Assembly (NCBI GenBank): GCA_031398745.1 | Contig: JANNNX010000007.1 | Location: 8,844 to 72,843 of the forward strand | Length of the DNA stretch: 64,000 nt | Reading direction: 5' to 3' | Origin: Actinomycetes bacterium | GTDB lineage: Bacteria > Actinomycetota > Acidimicrobiia > Acidimicrobiales > CADCSY01 | Part shown: positions 9,358 to 61,414 of the stretch, piece after piece | Numbering within the stretch: the first letter of the stretch is position 1 | Layout: every line of letters starts with the position of its first letter | Notes under the pieces: model-generated | The model's database searches: none | What the model was told of the DNA's origin: nothing | What the model saw: the letters and a program-made list of their open reading frames with translations, nothing else | Program-made: the position numbers and the translations under genes

Positions 9358-9566
9358 CCGGTCATCGTAGGTGGCACCCGGAGAGCCCTCGAACGGGCAT
9401 CCCGGCGCCGGCGAGGCCACCAGGCCACGGCGATACCCGCTCCGGCCGAGACGACGAGCAGCCCCACCAGCTCGAACGAGCCGAGGGCGGCGCCGGCCGC
9501 GACGAGGAACACCGGGAGTGCCAACATCAGCGCGACGAAGGTCAGTAGTCCGGTCAGAAGGCGCAT
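9354..9566 (-). CDS. small hydrophobic protein (two predicted TM segments), hypothetical
   Basis: MRLLTGLLTFVALMLALPVFLVAAGAALGSFELVGLLVVSAGAGIAVAWW... Its stop overlaps the gatC GTG (GTGA at 9354-9357). ATG at 9566, with an alternative ATG at 9590. No family recognised. Confidence 0.35.
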   Translation of the reverse strand: MRLLTGLLTFVALMLALPVFLVAAGAALGSFELVGLLVVSAGAGIAVAWWPRRRRDARSRALRVPPTMTG

Positions 9567-9572
9567 TTTCCA

Positions 9573-9601
9573 ACGATACGCACCGTGCATGTTCCGGTCG
9601 A
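9573..9601 (-). promoter_or_regulatory. candidate sigma70-type promoter giving a leaderless transcript for the small-ORF/gatCAB unit
   Basis: The minus strand reads TCGACC-17 nt-TATCGT-TGGAAA-ATG. The -10 hexamer ends 6 nt before ATG 9566, the spacing expected for a leaderless mRNA. This is a locally GC-poor spacer. Confidence 0.3.
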
Positions 9602-9604
9602 CAG

Positions 9605-31374: not shown

Positions 31375-32352
31375 ATGAGCGAGCTCCGCCTGAACCCCCT
31401 CCTCGGGCGCTGGGTCACGGTGGCCACCGACCGCCGCACCCGACCGTCGTCGTTCGACATCCGCCACCTCCCGGTCGAGCACGACCCGAACCGCCCGTGC
31501 CCGTTCTGTCCCGGCAACGAGGAGGACACACCGCCGGCGCTGGTGACCGACGGCCCCAGCGGTGCCTGGCGGGTGCGGGTCGTCCCCAACCGCTACCCGG
31601 CCTTCGAGGGCGACGAGCAGCTCATGGTCCGACACCTGGGGCCGGTGTTCACCCGGGCCAAGGCGTCGGGCGTGCACGAGGTGCTGGTGCTCTCCCCCGA
31701 CCACCAGACCAGCTTCGCCAGCCTCGACGACGAGCAGGTCGAGGCGGTCATGGACGCCCTCCAGGATCGGGTCGCGGCGCACGCAGCCATGCCCTCGGTC
31801 CGCTACTCGCAGGTGATCATCAACCGGGGCCGGGAGGCGGGGGCATCGCTCGACCACCCCCACGGGCAGCTCCTGGGTGTGCCGTTCGTGCCCGGGGAGC
31901 TGGCCGACGAGGAGGCGGGGTTCGCCCGCTTCGTGGGCGGCTGCCTCATGTGCACGACCCTCGAGGCCGAGGTCGAGTCGGGCGAGCGGGTGGTGGCCGA
32001 AGACGGTCACGCCGTCGCTCTCGCCCCGTACTGGAGCGGCACCCCCTACGAGCTGCTGATCATCCCCCGGGCGCACGAGGCCCACCTCGACAAGGTGAAG
32101 CCGGCCGACCTCCACGGTGTGGGCCAGACCCTGCGCGACATGCTGGCCCGCCTGCAGGTCCTGCTCGGTGACATCGCCTACAACGTCGTCTTCCACGCCT
32201 CGCCCCACCGCCACGACGGCGACTTCCACTGGCACGTCCACCTGCTGCCCAAGGTCACCACCCGGGCCGGGTTCGAGCTCGGCACCGGTGTGCTGATCAA
32301 CATCGTCGCCCCCGAGCAAGCCGCCGCCGACCTCAACGGGCTGGGCGGCTGA
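31375..32352 (+). CDS. galT: galactose-1-phosphate uridylyltransferase family (GalT / nucleotidyl-hexose phosphorylase, HIT superfamily)
   Basis: Zn motif CPFCPGNE, VPNRYPAF, and active-site SLDHPHGQLL. 325 aa from ATG 31375. Substrate specificity cannot be read from the sequence. Confidence 0.8.
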   Translation: MSELRLNPLLGRWVTVATDRRTRPSSFDIRHLPVEHDPNRPCPFCPGNEEDTPPALVTDGPSGAWRVRVVPNRYPAFEGDEQLMVRHLGPVFTRAKASGVHEVLVLSPDHQTSFASLDDEQVEAVMDALQDRVAAHAAMPSVRYSQVIINRGREAGASLDHPHGQLLGVPFVPGELADEEAGFARFVGGCLMCTTLEAEVESGERVVAEDGHAVALAPYWSGTPYELLIIPRAHEAHLDKVKPADLHGVGQTLRDMLARLQVLLGDIAYNVVFHASPHRHDGDFHWHVHLLPKVTTRAGFELGTGVLINIVAPEQAAADLNGLGG

Positions 32353-32375
32353 CCACCCGCTTTCGCGTCGCCACG

Positions 32376-32792
32376 GTGCTCGACGCGCCGGCCGATGCGG
32401 TGTGGGACGACCTGGCCGACGTCGGCACCCACGCCGAGTGGATGACCGATGCCGAGTCGCTGAGGTTCACCTCCGAGCAGCACCGCGGGGTCGGCACCAC
32501 CTACGTCTGCGTCACCCGGGTCGGGCCGATCCGCCTCGACGATGCCATGGCCGTCGAGGAGTGGGACGAGGCCGCTCGGGTCCTGGCCGTGCGCCACGAA
32601 GGCGTGGTCACCGGCACCGGCCGCTTCACCCTCCACCCGGTGGCCGCCGGTCGACGGACCCTGTTCGTCTGGGACGAGACCCTGGCCTTCCCGTGGTGGC
32701 TCGGGGGCGTACTCTCGGAGCGCCTCGGCCGCCCGATCCTCCTCGCTATCTGGCAGGGCAACCTCCGCCGCCTGGCCGACCGCTTCGGCTGA
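32376..32792 (+). CDS. SRPBCC (START/polyketide-cyclase-like) family protein
   Basis: LDAPADAVWDDLADVGTHAEWM ... GTGRFTLHPVAAGRRTLFVWDETL. The true start may lie a few codons upstream, close to the galT stop. Confidence 0.7.
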   Translation: MLDAPADAVWDDLADVGTHAEWMTDAESLRFTSEQHRGVGTTYVCVTRVGPIRLDDAMAVEEWDEAARVLAVRHEGVVTGTGRFTLHPVAAGRRTLFVWDETLAFPWWLGGVLSERLGRPILLAIWQGNLRRLADRFG

Positions 32793-32957
32793 AGGCCCGC
32801 GGACGGATAGTCGTGGGCTCGGCGTTCAGCGCCATTGCCGAGGACACGTGCTGGTCTGGCCACATCGCTATGGGGCTCTACGCGACGAACCTGCGACGGC
32901 GGGTTCTGATGCTCGTGACCGATTGAGTCTGGCAGCGGGGTGTGCCGCTTATCGCCA

Positions 32958-33260
32958 TCAGTTTGCTACGAAGACGATCCCTACGAAGACGATGGCAGTA
33001 GCGACGCACCATATCGTTGCCCCCCCAGCCCAACGGTTTCCCCGACGAAACGCTCGGTAGGCCAACAGTGCTCCGAGTAGCGATGGAACAAACAACACGA
33101 GGCCGACCAGTCCCAGCAGCCAGAACAGTGCCGACGACGGGTAGGCACGCACCTGTCGGTCGGGTCCGATCATGTCAAGGTGAGACGGCATGAAGAAGTA
33201 GGCACGAGTGGTGATCCGACGGCGTACCTCGAACTCGGGACGTTCCATGTCGTCGCTCAC
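32958..33260 (-). CDS. small two-TM membrane protein (DUF4190-like pattern), in the low-GC islet
   Basis: 100 aa. SALFWLLGLVGLVLFVPSLLGALLAYRAFRRGNRWAGGATIWCVATAIVFVGIVFV. Codon usage is clearly less GC3-biased than its neighbours. Start is GTG 33260 or ATG 33248. Confidence 0.4.
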   Translation of the reverse strand: MSDDMERPEFEVRRRITTRAYFFMPSHLDMIGPDRQVRAYPSSALFWLLGLVGLVLFVPSLLGALLAYRAFRRGNRWAGGATIWCVATAIVFVGIVFVAN

Positions 33261-33420
33261 GAGAAGGGGTACTCACATTCCGATCAGTAGAGGTAGCAGC
33301 TTCACCTACTGGACAAAGGAAAGTCGTTGGAAGTCGACCTCAGTCGGATGAGCTGCTTTGCCGCCCGGGGGGAGACAACAGACGATCGACGAGCAAGTCG
33401 TTTTTCGGAGGAATGCTTGT

Positions 33421-33741
33421 CTATCTGCTGTCTTTGGGACGCCGAGGGGCCGGAGGCGAATAGCCAATACCACCAAGCCTTCGTAACCACAAGAACCATG
33501 CTGCTGGCGCGATAGGTAGGAATACTCCCCCAGCTTTGGTCGCCGAGAACGTGACTAAGAAGGCGATAATCACCTTTCCTCTCGGGTTGTACCAACGCTC
33601 TGCGGGTGTGTGAATGATGTCGGCGATTGCTGCCAGCCACATGCAAGTGGCGATGACGTTGAGACCGACACGCACGGGGTTGTCGAGCTCGATGGCGACA
33701 CCGGGAAGGGTAGCGTTCATGACTATAAACAGCTCGGCCAT
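33421..33741 (-). CDS. small two-TM membrane protein (weak PLD-N-terminal-domain-like pattern), in the low-GC islet
   Basis: MAELFIVMNATLPGVAIELDNPVRVGLNVIATCMWLAAIADIIHTPAERWYNPRGKVIIAFLVTF... Start is ATG 33741 or in-frame ATG 33720. The longer track ORF upstream looks non-coding. Confidence 0.35.
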   Translation of the reverse strand: MAELFIVMNATLPGVAIELDNPVRVGLNVIATCMWLAAIADIIHTPAERWYNPRGKVIIAFLVTFSATKAGGVFLPIAPAAWFLWLRRLGGIGYSPPAPRRPKDSR

Positions 33742-34038
33742 GTCCCGCCGCCACCACCCGTGGGTATGACCGTTCTCTCGGCATCGACATAGAACACAGC
33801 ATCGACGACAACCGTCTTGTTGCGAAGTCGACCGGCCATCGTGCACTCTCCCCCAGTTCCAGCTCCGTCGGTAGCGAAAGGAAGATACGACGTTCGATCG
33901 GGTCGTCAGGTGCCCGGCGGTGAACCCTTGGCGAACAGTTCCGGCTACGCCCACCACGGGTGGTCCGAGGGTCACCGACGAGATCATTATCCGAGTAGAG
34001 CGAAGCCCACTACACCCGTTCTGTGTGGTGGTGTCCGG

Positions 34039-36213
<2,175 letters not shown>

Positions 36214-36223
36214 CGCGAACCGC

Positions 36224-38032
36224 TCACCGGACGGGGCGCAGGTGCAACAGGTGGCCCGGCCCGACGGCCGGGTCGAGGCGCACGTACTGGGCCGCTCCCA
36301 CCCACGAGTAGGTCTCGCCTCGGAGCTCGTCGTAGGCCACGAACGGGGTCCGCGCCGGCAGACCGAGGCGTTCGAGGTCGAGCCACACGGTGTCCTCTTG
36401 GACGCCGTCGGGGTCGAGGTTGACCACCACCAGGACCACGTCGGCGAGGTCGTCGGACCACCGGGCATAGGCCAGCACCAGGTCGTTGGCCGAGTCGCAG
36501 AAGGCGATGTTGCGCAGACTGCGCAGCGCCGGGTGGGCCCGGCGGGCTCGGTTGACCTCGGTGATGAACGGGGCCAGCGAGTCGGCCGCCGACCAGTCCC
36601 GGGCCTTGATCTCGTACTTCTCGGAGTGGGCGTACTCCTCGTCGTGCTCGGAGCGGGGCTGGTTCTCGCCCAGCTCGAAGCCGGAGTAGATGCCGTAGGT
36701 CGGCACCAGCGTCGCGGCCAGCAGCAGGCGGAGCCGGAAGGCGGCCAGGTTCCCGCCGCGCAGCGGCCCAGCCAGGATGTCGGGCGTGTTGGGCCAGAAC
36801 GCCGGTCGGAAGTGGTCGACCAGCGGTTCTGAGGTCAGCTCGGTGACGTAGCTGGTGAGCTCGGCCTTGGTCCGGCGCCAGGTGAAGTAGGTGTAGCTCT
36901 GGCTGAAGCCGACCTCGGCCAGCTTGACCATGACCTTGGGCCGGGTGAAGGCCTCGGACAGGAACAGCACGTCGGGGTGGAGCGACTGCACGGCGGGGAT
37001 CAGCCAGGCCCAGAACGCCATCGGCTTGGTATGGGGGTTGTCGACCAGGAAGATGCGCACCCCATGCGACACCCAGAACTCGACGATCTCCCGACAGGCC
37101 TGCCACAGCCCCCGGCGCTCGGCCTCGTCGGAGGGCCAGAAGTCGAGCGGGTAGATGTCCTGGTACTGCTTGGGCGGGTTGGCGGCGTGGGCGATGGAGC
37201 CGTCGGCCCGGTGGTGGAACCAGGCCGGGTGCTCGCTGACCCACGGGTGGTCGGGCGAGCACTGCAGGGCGTAGTCGAGGGCGATCTCGAGGCCGAGCTG
37301 TCGGGCACGGGCCACCAGCCGGTCGAAGTCGTCGAGGGTGCCGAGATCGGGGTGCACGGCGGTGTGCCCACCCTCGGGCCCGCCGATGGCCCACGGGCTC
37401 CCGGGGTCGCCGGGCCCGGCCGCCAGCGTGTTGTCGGGCCCCTTGCGCTGGGTGCGGCCGATCGGGTGCACGGGCGGGAGGTAGACGACGTCGAAGCCCA
37501 TGGCCGCCACCTCCACCAGACGCTCGGCGGTGCCGGCGAACCCGCCCTCGGACCGGGGGAAGAGTTCGTACCAGGCACCGGCCACAGCCCGGGGACGATC
37601 GACCCACACTGGGTGCGGGCCACCGGTGGAGTGGCGGCCGGTGGGGGCCACATGGTCGCTTCGGCGGGGCGGCGGCTCCTGCCCGGCGTCGAGCATGATC
37701 CGGGCGTCGCGGGCCCAGGTGGCCTCGAGGTCGACCCAGGCCTCGACGACCACCTCGTGGCGCCCGGCTCGATCGAAGGTGACCACCGCCTCCCAGCGGT
37801 CGTTGCCGACCGCGGTCATGGGGTGCTCGGCCCAGGTGGCCGACCCGGGCCCGGTGGCCAGGTGGATCCGGGCCACCGCCCTCAGCTCGTCGTGGCCGTC
37901 GGTGTAGATGTCGGCCGAGACCCGCACCGGCTCGCCCTCGACCACCTTGGCCGGGAACGCGCCGCTCGGGGTCCGAGGCCGGAAGTCATCGATCACGATC
38001 GGCGGGAGCAGTGGCTCCGGCACTCGGGTCAC
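36224..38032 (-). CDS. glgE: alpha-1,4-glucan:maltose-1-phosphate maltosyltransferase
   Basis: PIVIDDFRPRTPSGAFPAKVVEGEPVRVSADIYTDGHD, WYELFPRSEGG, FDVVYLPPVHPIGRTQRKG, RIFLVDNPHTKP and FWPNTPDIL blocks. GTG 38032 is preceded by GAAGGTGG. Confidence 0.9.
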   Translation of the reverse strand: MTRVPEPLLPPIVIDDFRPRTPSGAFPAKVVEGEPVRVSADIYTDGHDELRAVARIHLATGPGSATWAEHPMTAVGNDRWEAVVTFDRAGRHEVVVEAWVDLEATWARDARIMLDAGQEPPPRRSDHVAPTGRHSTGGPHPVWVDRPRAVAGAWYELFPRSEGGFAGTAERLVEVAAMGFDVVYLPPVHPIGRTQRKGPDNTLAAGPGDPGSPWAIGGPEGGHTAVHPDLGTLDDFDRLVARARQLGLEIALDYALQCSPDHPWVSEHPAWFHHRADGSIAHAANPPKQYQDIYPLDFWPSDEAERRGLWQACREIVEFWVSHGVRIFLVDNPHTKPMAFWAWLIPAVQSLHPDVLFLSEAFTRPKVMVKLAEVGFSQSYTYFTWRRTKAELTSYVTELTSEPLVDHFRPAFWPNTPDILAGPLRGGNLAAFRLRLLLAATLVPTYGIYSGFELGENQPRSEHDEEYAHSEKYEIKARDWSAADSLAPFITEVNRARRAHPALRSLRNIAFCDSANDLVLAYARWSDDLADVVLVVVNLDPDGVQEDTVWLDLERLGLPARTPFVAYDELRGETYSWVGAAQYVRLDPAVGPGHLLHLRPVR

Positions 38033-38121
38033 GCCGCCACCTTCGCAGATCCCTCCTGGATGTCGGCGTGTTTCACACCCACAGTGGTTGCCGATGGGGT
38101 CGCCATCGAGACCACCGACGC

Positions 38122-39798
38122 TCAGCCGGCCCGCTCCCGGCCGGCCAGCCGGGAGCGGATGAGCGCCCGGCGCTCCTGGAGGTCGCGGTAGGTGAAACCG
38201 TCGAGGGCCGGGTCGAGGCCGAGGCTGGCCTTGACCCCCTCGAGGTCGACCTCGAGGGAGGCCGAGCGGCCGGGGCCCAGCTCCGCGGCCAGGCGGTCGC
38301 CGTGGGCGGTGGCGAAGTGGGTCGCGACCTCGGCGATCACGCCCAGCAGGTCGAGGTCGGGGGCGAGGGTGGCGATGGCCCCGTCGAGGAAGAGCAGGTT
38401 TTTGACGTAGAGCATGAGCTCCTTGGGCATCCGGGCCCCGTAGCCCAGGAGGGCCTTGAGCACCCGGCGGACCTCGGCCACCAGCTGGTCGGCCGACAGC
38501 GTGGTCGGGTCGAGCGTCGGCCCCTCGAGGCCGAGGTCGTCGCTCACCTGCTGGAGGTCGGTGTCGGCCGGAAGGGCTCCGAGGTCGCGCAGGGCCGCCA
38601 GCTGGGCCAGCACGTCGTTGGTCATGCCGCCGAGCATCAGGCGCAGGAAGGCCTGGCGCCGATGCTCGTCGAAGCGGGCGGTGATGCCGAAGTCGAGCAG
38701 CGCCACCCGCCCGTCGGGCTGGACCAGGAGGTTGCCGCCGTGGAGGTCGCCGTGGAAGACCCCGTGGAGCATGGCCCCCTCGAGGAACCCGATCATCCCC
38801 GCCCGGACCAGGTCGGCGGGGTCGATCCCGGCCTCGGCCATGGCGGCCAGGTCGTCGAAGGCGAAGCCGTGCAGCCGCTCCATGACCAGGACCCGTCGGG
38901 TGACCAGCTCGGGGTGGGGACGGGGGACGACGTAGCGGCGCTGCCCCAGCTCGGCCAGCACCCGCGACACGTCGAGCATGTTCTGGGCCTCGAGGCGGAA
39001 GTCGAGCTCCTCGCTGATGGTCTCGGCGAACAGCTCGACCAGCGCCGGGGGGTTGGCCAGCGCGGCCACCGGGATCCGCCCGATGAGGTGCGGCGCCACC
39101 CAGGCGAGCACGGCGAGGTCGGCCCCCACCCGGTCGGCGACCGTCGAGCGCTGGACCTTGACCACCACCTCTTCGCCGGTGCGGAGGCGAGCGGTGTGGA
39201 CCTGGGCGATCGACGCCGCCGCCAGGGCCCGACGGTCGAAGCGCTCGAAGACCTCGTGGAGCGGTCGGCCGAGTTCGGCCTCGACGGTGGCCCGCACCAA
39301 CGGGAAGGGCTCCGCCGGCACCTGGTCGCGGCAGCGCTCGAACTCGCTCACCAGGACGTCGGGGAACACCCCCCGTCCGGCGGAAATGATCTGGCCCAGC
39401 TTGATGTAGGTGGGACCCAGGGCCTCGGCGGCCAGGCGGAGCCGGCGAGCGAGGTCGGCGACCGAGTCGGTACCCGAGCGTCGCCGCCGACGCGTCCCGA
39501 GCCACCACCCGGCCAGGGCCGGGCCGAGGTGGCGGGCGGTGACGGCCAGGCGGCCCCCCGGCGGTACCCGCCGCACCCGGGTCAGCTCGGGGACCGACGC
39601 CCGGGTGCGAGCCCGCAACTCGTCGATGCCCCTCTGCCAGGGCATCCCGTCCCGGTCGTCGAGCACCCAGGGGGGGTGGTCGGAGAAGACCCCGAAGGCC
39701 AGGTCGGAGGGCGCCGCGTCGACCTCCACAGTCCCGTCGGCGGGCTCCCCGTCGACCTCCGGCCGCCCGTCGACCGGCGGCAGATCGGCGTGGGGCAC
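38122..39798 (-). CDS. ABC1/UbiB (AarF/ADCK) atypical kinase family protein
   Basis: LGPTYIKLGQIIS, AAASIAQVHTARL, ELDFRLEAQN and HGDLHGGNLLV blocks. 558 aa. Confidence 0.9.
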   Translation of the reverse strand: MPHADLPPVDGRPEVDGEPADGTVEVDAAPSDLAFGVFSDHPPWVLDDRDGMPWQRGIDELRARTRASVPELTRVRRVPPGGRLAVTARHLGPALAGWWLGTRRRRRSGTDSVADLARRLRLAAEALGPTYIKLGQIISAGRGVFPDVLVSEFERCRDQVPAEPFPLVRATVEAELGRPLHEVFERFDRRALAAASIAQVHTARLRTGEEVVVKVQRSTVADRVGADLAVLAWVAPHLIGRIPVAALANPPALVELFAETISEELDFRLEAQNMLDVSRVLAELGQRRYVVPRPHPELVTRRVLVMERLHGFAFDDLAAMAEAGIDPADLVRAGMIGFLEGAMLHGVFHGDLHGGNLLVQPDGRVALLDFGITARFDEHRRQAFLRLMLGGMTNDVLAQLAALRDLGALPADTDLQQVSDDLGLEGPTLDPTTLSADQLVAEVRRVLKALLGYGARMPKELMLYVKNLLFLDGAIATLAPDLDLLGVIAEVATHFATAHGDRLAAELGPGRSASLEVDLEGVKASLGLDPALDGFTYRDLQERRALIRSRLAGRERAG

Positions 39799-59423: not shown

Positions 59424-61266
<1,843 letters not shown>

Positions 61267-61339
61267 GGTCCTGGAGGAGGTTCCTGGAGGAGGTCGAGGA
61301 GGACGAGCCAGCCGTGGCTGGGCTCGTGAAAGTGTTCTC

Positions 61340-61368
61340 AATCTAAAGCCGGTTCGCGAGAGGTGCAA
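61340..61368 (-). promoter_or_regulatory. candidate sigma70-type promoter of the atp operon
   Basis: The minus strand reads TTGCAC (61368-61363), exactly 17 nt, then TAGATT (61345-61340). It sits in the only GC-poor patch of the spacer and implies a leader of about 65-70 nt. Confidence 0.35.
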
Positions 61369-61414
61369 ACCTGACGTTGCCCACGTCGGAGGCCCATGGC
61401 ACCATCGTCGGCCC

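Follow-up and report, generated by a model that had tools for sequence, protein, structure and literature searches.

A low-GC islet beside glgB in an Acidimicrobiales-like actinobacterium and its two putative small membrane-protein genes

Small membrane proteins encoded in accessory DNA are common and mostly uncharacterised. Here we describe a low-GC (guanine plus cytosine) islet in a 64-kb stretch of an actinobacterial contig (JANNNX010000007.1, positions 8,844 to 72,843; hereafter the window, numbered from its first nucleotide), which lies between an SRPBCC gene and glgB and holds two open reading frames (ORFs) for predicted two-transmembrane (two-TM) proteins, orfA and orfB. The closest described counterparts of such a segment are genomic islets and ORFan-bearing accessory segments. 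Like these, the islet is short, has an atypical composition and codon usage, sits between conserved neighbours and is missing from syntenic relatives, and its small genes lack any annotated function. Unlike them, it has neither an integrase nor a tRNA target nor flanking repeats, it occupies the space between two convergent 3′ ends, and it has no traceable donor.

A second comparison is with the cargo of actinobacterial plasmids and integrative elements. Homologues of orfB occur near a MobF relaxase gene on a 73% GC contig and in an island with integrase fragments, as might be expected of such cargo; unlike such cargo, no orfB homologue was found in a collection of 72,556 plasmid records, searched in protein and distant-DNA modes, and there is no transfer or integration gene near the islet in the window. 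On balance, we favour the view that the islet is a small horizontally acquired block with two independent small membrane-protein genes, a view that we hold with some reserve. The features on which the analysis turns are as follows; the last is the upstream part of a gene call made on a Logan contig that covers the same locus.

32793..34038, no strand assigned: low-GC islet (59.4% GC) that takes up all the space from SRPBCC to glgB, two convergent genes
32958..33260, minus strand: orfA, predicted two-TM protein of 100 amino acids (aa), GTG start at 33260; alternative ATG at 33248, giving 96 aa
33421..33741, minus strand: orfB, membrane protein of 106 aa; alternative ATG start at 33720, giving 99 aa
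33742..33987, minus strand: 5′ part by which the 188-aa Logan-contig call exceeds orfB; 82 non-conserved codons

Two minus-strand two-TM ORFs exceed chance

Long ORFs are common in random islets at 59% GC, which yield about 6 stop-to-stop ORFs of at least 80 codons each, and ORF length by itself is therefore uninformative; the real islet also has ORFs 169 and 188 aa long, which overlap in different frames. Chance was assessed with 3,000 first-order Markov randomisations of the islet, in which an ORF qualified if it encoded at least 80 aa with at least 2 Kyte–Doolittle TM segments. One qualifying two-TM ORF arose in 0.3% of the random islets and two arose in none (0/3000); the real islet has two, both on the minus strand, and both exceed chance. 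Each has two hydrophobic segments, and both show codon-position periodicity, with GC at the three positions of 0.63/0.49/0.67 in orfA and 0.56/0.51/0.64 in orfB. An initial annotation, made from the sequence alone, had pointed to two minus-strand ORFs for two-TM proteins at 32958–33260 and 33421–33741, and these are present at exactly those positions, with 100 and 106 aa. It had also described their GC at the third codon position (GC3) as lower than that of the flanking genes, and the values of 0.67 for orfA and 0.64 for orfB lie well under the 0.92–0.95 of galT, SRPBCC and glgB.

orfB is a real gene that encodes a conserved protein. An exhaustive phmmer search of 1.84 billion representative proteins, with the 188-aa ORF as a single-sequence query, recovered ten true homologues (P0003–P0012; 79–194 aa, 32–46% identity, E = 7 × 10−16 to 9 × 10−5). 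All ten align to residues ~88–184 of the 188-aa ORF, and none aligns to residues 1–87. A separate match to a 4165-aa tandem-repeat protein (P0002, E = 2 × 10−39) sums 24 weak matches of a 42-residue stretch and was rejected as a repeat artefact.

In the family alignment (A1), most full-length homologues begin 12–19 columns past the first methionine of orfB; the exceptions are two homologues in which the start methionine is the lone earlier residue, and P0012, which begins at column 1. These starts place the gene at 33421–33741 (106 aa) or from the ATG at 33720 (99 aa). Upstream, 33742–33987 is without codon-position periodicity (0.60/0.62/0.65), and its RNA fold is no better than that of shuffled sequences (z = 0.13). 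Judged from the alignment and composition, the 188-aa gene call is over-extended and 33742–33987 is probably untranslated. The same gene caller left orfA uncalled on the Logan contig, and orfA is probably a real gene nonetheless.

The orfB family and orfA

The A1 alignment has six invariant residues (N28, A38, D41, W50, G72 and P76), all of which orfB, itself full length, retains. The family consensus reads N-V-x(7)-W-L-A-A-x-V-D-V-x-R-T-P-x(3)-W-x-N-P-R-G-K-V ... G-V-Y-x-P-V-x-P-x-x-W. Three features mark the family: a first TM helix whose end reads W-L-x-A-x-x-D-[VI]-x-R-x-P, a short loop of basic character (W-x-N-x-R-G-K), and then the second hydrophobic stretch, which a conserved G-x-[YF]-x-P-x-x-P turn interrupts. 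The orfB loop between the helices is basic, and so is the C-terminal tail. An AlphaFold (AF2) model built from A1, with a predicted local distance difference test score of 75, has a long helix at 22–44 and short helices at 53–65 and 77–89 around the conserved G-x-[YF]-x-P turn. This modelled arrangement could correspond to one membrane-spanning helix and, after it, a re-entrant hairpin.

The family has neither a Pfam model nor a solved structure. The nearest described layout is that of PLDc_N (PF13396), which we take to be the N-terminal two-TM module of cardiolipin-synthase-like proteins, often stand-alone, in which TM1 closes with an acidic/basic D-[VI]-x-R motif and a short loop leads to another hydrophobic segment that contains proline and glycine; in these respects the orfB family presumably resembles it. 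One of 10 family members gives a weak match to PLDc_N (E = 0.065), far below the Pfam gathering threshold, and orfB itself gives no match at E ≤ 5. The second-segment motif G-x-[YF]-x-P-x-x-P-x-x-W is peculiar to the orfB family, and homology with PLDc_N is not established. Among solved structures, the only small membrane protein with any resemblance to the family is chain X of PDB entry 10ed, 58 residues deposited as ‘MFS transporter’, which aligns to the TM1–loop part of the family profile without significance (E = 0.15).

A profile search of a database of 5.8 billion clusters returned only seven clusters, of one contig each, and the orfB family is therefore very rare. About ten clusters are known, with proteins mostly of 79–120 aa that appear to be actinobacterial.

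The homologues sit on high-GC actinobacterial-type contigs, two of which are accessory or mobile regions. On a metagenome contig of 73% GC (L104, 1–12239), the orfB homologue lies amid ORFans, 3.5 kb from genes for a NERD protein and a TrwC/MobF relaxase. The relaxase, of 1439 aa, has best plasmid matches that are ~30% identical, from Streptomyces, Paenarthrobacter and Rhodococcus, and the contig also carries a nucleotidyltransferase-domain protein and an rve_2 fragment; it is likely to be part of an actinobacterial conjugative or mobilisable element. The second region, on a 31-kb contig of 67% GC (L111), is an ORFan island in which the homologue occurs with rve, PIN, barstar, GGDEF and HIRAN fragments. 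This copy (P0008, 194 aa, L111 7188–7772) contains the family core at residues 73–133 only, the rest of the ORF being unrelated, and is possibly degraded. The 17 kb around P0008 are full of short fragment-like genes, the mark of an island in decay or else of a long-read assembly rich in frameshifts.

Elsewhere, a homologue adjoins a DUF397 and DUF5753 gene pair (L107), is flanked, in DNA of native GC, by a hydrolase gene on one side and an IMPDH/NMO-like gene on the other (L105), or has APH-like, CSD and glyoxalase genes as neighbours (the P0004 contig); the other contexts are short contigs. No neighbour gene recurs across the gene tables of the nine orfB-homologue contexts. The closest homologues are on contigs of 64–65% GC, and the codon-position GC of the L110 homologue (0.60/0.49/0.68) is near that of orfB. 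Taken by their sequence contexts, the members of the family would be accessory proteins of high-GC actinobacteria that occur in mobile-element contexts in some cases.

The orfA product has a charged N-terminal part of 40 residues and then a strongly hydrophobic hairpin with a basic loop, the hydrophobic segments having Kyte–Doolittle means of ~2.5. A single-sequence model is a helical hairpin with helices at 41–72 and 78–99. The best Pfam match, to DUF308/HdeD (PF03729), reaches 12.4 bits (E = 0.2) and is under the cut-off of 25 bits. Like the repeated two-TM units of DUF308/HdeD type, orfA is a two-TM hairpin with a short basic connecting loop; unlike them, it has a charged 40-residue N-terminal region that is without counterpart. 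A perfect 13-nt direct repeat, CTACGAAGACGAT, with a spacing of 15 (window 32966–32993), is found at the 3′ end of orfA, where it encodes a repeated IVFV motif of the last TM helix; it may be a small in-frame duplication.

No homologue of orfA was found in a word-indexed protein search, in the plasmid, phage and IMG/VR collections or in any fetched locus. The word-indexed search missed all of the orfB homologues later found by full HMMER, returning only the self-hit for the 188-aa ORF, and the orphan status of orfA is therefore provisional. Of the sensitive profile and structure searches that the initial annotation envisaged for both small proteins, phmmer recovered the ten homologues of orfB, and Foldseek found no fold match for the orfB model in PDB or BFVD.

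Origin of the islet

The islet has a GC content of 0.594 compared with 0.733 across the 64-kb window and is its deepest GC dip: 1-kb sliding windows have a mean GC of 0.734 (standard deviation 0.028), and the lowest, at 0.579, starts at 32901. The interval is thus the compositional outlier that the initial annotation took it to be, and the four 60-nt hand counts given there (0.50, 0.567, 0.60 and 0.733) are exact. In a two-change-point likelihood fit, the low-GC block runs from ~32834 to ~34030. The support ranges of its edges, drawn at 2 log-likelihood (lnL) units, are 32783–32960 and 33894–34071; because they take in both flanking stop codons, the low-GC block occupies the entire gap from the SRPBCC stop to the glgB stop. 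In a crude gene map, native-type ORFs (those whose GC3 is 0.88 or higher) cover 93% of the window. The longest stretch left uncovered is the islet itself (1246 nt), which is also the sole long one with low GC; the remaining long uncovered stretches have 72–79% GC and are native genes missed by the GC3 filter.

The organism appears to be an Acidimicrobiales-like actinobacterium without a close sequenced relative, as the best identities are 66% for GlgB among 185,579 species representatives and 56% for SRPBCC in JGI metagenomes. We identified seven relatives in which SRPBCC and/or galT is downstream of and convergent with glgB (L002, L005, L006, L010, L013, L049 and L080), all with GlgB identities of no more than 66%. 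The low-GC segment, orfA and orfB are absent from 7/7 of them. The corresponding gap is shortest in L013 (66 nt) and longest in L080 (6 kb), and the six gaps of more than 1 kb, which were characterised by ORF and GC3 only, are of native GC and hold different high-GC3 ORFs (99–783 aa) in each genome. Because the relatives carry different native-GC genes at this position, the islet appears not to be ancestral at the glgB–SRPBCC junction, and the 3′ junction of glgB looks like a site of recurrent gene turnover among Acidimicrobiales-like genomes. The initial annotation had reasoned that conservation of the segment in distant relatives would make it an ancestral feature; 0/7 relatives carry it. 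A tblastx comparison of the islet with all of the relatives’ loci gave scattered noise only, with no relics of the genes that occupy this gap in other genomes.

Eight islet ORFs, taken from both strands, had no significant match in Pfam, PHROGs, NCBIfam or PADLOC; at E ≤ 1 there was no match in PADLOC and, save for one 18-residue noise match, none in PHROGs. A phage holin or prophage remnant found no backing: tblastn and blastn against 50,697 phage records and searches of IMG/VR gave no match, and BFVD yielded no similar fold. A degenerate motif pattern run on IMG/VR gave two chance matches, which hmmsearch rejected, and peptide patterns gave none. A structured non-coding RNA is not supported, with no Rfam match at E ≤ 1 and with three islet spacers that fold no better than shuffles (z = 0.13, −1.48 and −0.21).

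We infer a foreign origin for the islet because the GC3 of its genes is 0.64–0.67 compared with at least 0.88 for native genes and because the closest homologues are on 64–65% GC contigs. The case for import thus rests on a real gene with GC3 of 0.64, on the mid-GC contigs of its closest relatives and on its absence from syntenic relatives. The islet would most likely be what is left of an actinobacterial mobile element, or else cargo that such an element delivered, between the convergent 3′ ends of the glgE–glgB and galT–SRPBCC units. The products of its two genes, which lie on the glgB strand, would be small integral membrane proteins, each inserting into the membrane as a helical hairpin. 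The two are unrelated, and our best guess is that each would act alone at the membrane or envelope, as an accessory factor of the sort that plasmids and integrative elements carry as cargo; they would not form a two-component system.

Several observations count against import. Short native intergenic spacers of the window have 57–65% GC (9451–9604, 38054–38121 and 61297–61378), so low GC alone is usual for non-coding DNA in this genome and is no proof of foreign origin. The low GC of the islet could in part be this ordinary non-coding state, and the argument for import depends on the non-native GC3 of a real gene. Mobility signatures were not found: Pfam, tRNA and repeat scans bore out the initial impression of an interval without integrase, transposase, tRNA or flanking direct repeat, there being no tRNA in the whole window, no att-like direct repeat, no terminal inverted repeat and no other meaningful flanking direct or inverted repeat. 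Neither DNA nor protein searches of the plasmid, phage and IMG/VR collections gave a match, identity to orfB reaches just 46% among its homologues, and no donor was found. With the nearest relative at 66% GlgB identity, a gain would be neither datable nor polarisable, so that ‘recent’ cannot be shown. Neither orfA nor orfB has a clear Shine–Dalgarno motif, and no sigma-70-like promoter or terminator is predicted for them or elsewhere in the islet; because no terminator is predicted, both are possibly expressed by read-through from glgB. Of the horizontally acquired or fast-evolving insert that was first proposed, what stands is a compositional outlier with small membrane-protein genes, apparently non-ancestral, in which orfB has homologues in mobile or accessory contexts.

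The low GC of native spacers, the missing mobility signatures, the lack of an orfA homologue, the absence of a ribosome-binding site or promoter consensus and the omission of orfA by the gene caller would all suit native, long-resident DNA. The islet would then be a largely non-coding or decaying gap that has relaxed to ~60% GC, orfB an old gene that is losing constraint, and orfA a chance or de novo ORF. We consider this unlikely, given two clean two-TM ORFs that no random islet reproduced, a full-length orfB with every family-invariant residue in place and a gap that is 8 times as long as any other low-GC spacer of the window. Relatives also show no trace of the segment, and tblastx found in it no remnants of the genes that occupy their gaps. 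Scarcely credible, in our judgement, is an assembly chimera, in which a piece of a lower-GC organism was misjoined into a high-GC contig: the source is of metagenome type without a close reference and the composition changes abruptly at both gene ends, but a separately assembled Logan contig of 3010 nt, from SRR20217204, is 100% identical to window 31641–34650 and crosses both islet junctions. The islet is therefore no artefact of one assembler; the same locus on this contig is the sole 100% match to it. A chimera would, in addition, require exact insertion into preserved synteny, as glgB and SRPBCC–galT are neighbours in several relatives too.

If the islet was acquired, its genes might still work jointly, as a membrane toxin with its immunity protein or as a phage-exclusion or abortive-infection pair, the kind of module that the initial annotation had offered as an example. 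The two genes are co-oriented, 160 nt apart and within one foreign-looking block, and relatives of orfB occur in accessory islands that also hold toxin–antitoxin-type genes (PIN and barstar). Yet a spacer of 160 nt is long for coupled genes, orfA and the orfB family are unrelated (hhalign probability 0.1%), no orfA-like ORF exists in the DNA recovered around eight orfB homologues, and the nine contexts share no neighbour. The defence and phage profiles gave only the noise match noted above, and family members are absent from phage and IMG/VR data, as they are from plasmids. We therefore set the pair aside as quite improbable and retain two independent genes in a horizontally acquired block. 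A bolder version of that reading, which we regard as a long shot, is that the orfB family and, independently, orfA are hitherto unrecognised accessory factors that act on membranes and travel on mobile elements of actinobacteria, one such factor having been captured beside alpha-glucan genes and perhaps being expressed by glgB read-through. Candidate roles could then be those of an entry- or surface-exclusion, abortive-infection or membrane-depolarising protein, and proof of any activity would establish a new family of small proteins.

As a locus, the islet is fairly ordinary accessory DNA that touches no long-standing question and would be no surprise to specialists. The main value of the analysis is a correction of annotation, in which a 188-aa call is recognised as over-extended and an uncalled 100-aa ORF as probably a gene. 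It also adds an entry for an unnamed and very rare family of small (79–120 aa) actinobacterial membrane proteins with a clear conserved motif.

Flanking genes and other features of the window

The islet is bounded by two native genes.

32376..32792, plus strand: left flank, native SRPBCC (Polyketide_cyc2) gene; Pfam E = 5.7 × 10−10, GC3 0.93
34039..36240, minus strand: right flank, native glgB, final gene of the glgE–glgB unit; GC3 0.92

Both genes are intact at the 3′ end that faces the islet: homologues of the SRPBCC protein align over residues 1–137 of 138, and relatives of GlgB align up to residue 732 of 733. GlgB has the Pfam domains GlgB_N, CBM_48, Alpha-amylase and Alpha-amylase_C. A GalT-like gene and then the SRPBCC gene are on the plus strand, and glgE and then glgB are on the minus strand, with a glucan phosphorylase gene farther along, past glgB and glgE. 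Pfam agrees with all five names that these neighbours had been given at first (Polyketide_cyc2/SRPBCC, GalT-like, GlgB, GlgE and glucan phosphorylase).

Two other GC dips in the window coincide with native-type genes. One, at ~1.4–1.7 kb, falls within the native-type ORF 2–1966. The other, at ~59.6–60.3 kb, is the second-lowest GC region and overlaps an ORF at 59702–60463 on the minus strand with GC3 of 0.98 and second-position GC of only 0.35; the probable product is a native membrane protein of high hydrophobicity, and the dip therefore stems from amino-acid composition and not from foreign codon usage or DNA. Within the alpha-glucan cluster, between glgE and the glucan phosphorylase gene, there is also a gene for an ABC1/UbiB-type atypical kinase (38122–39798, minus strand).

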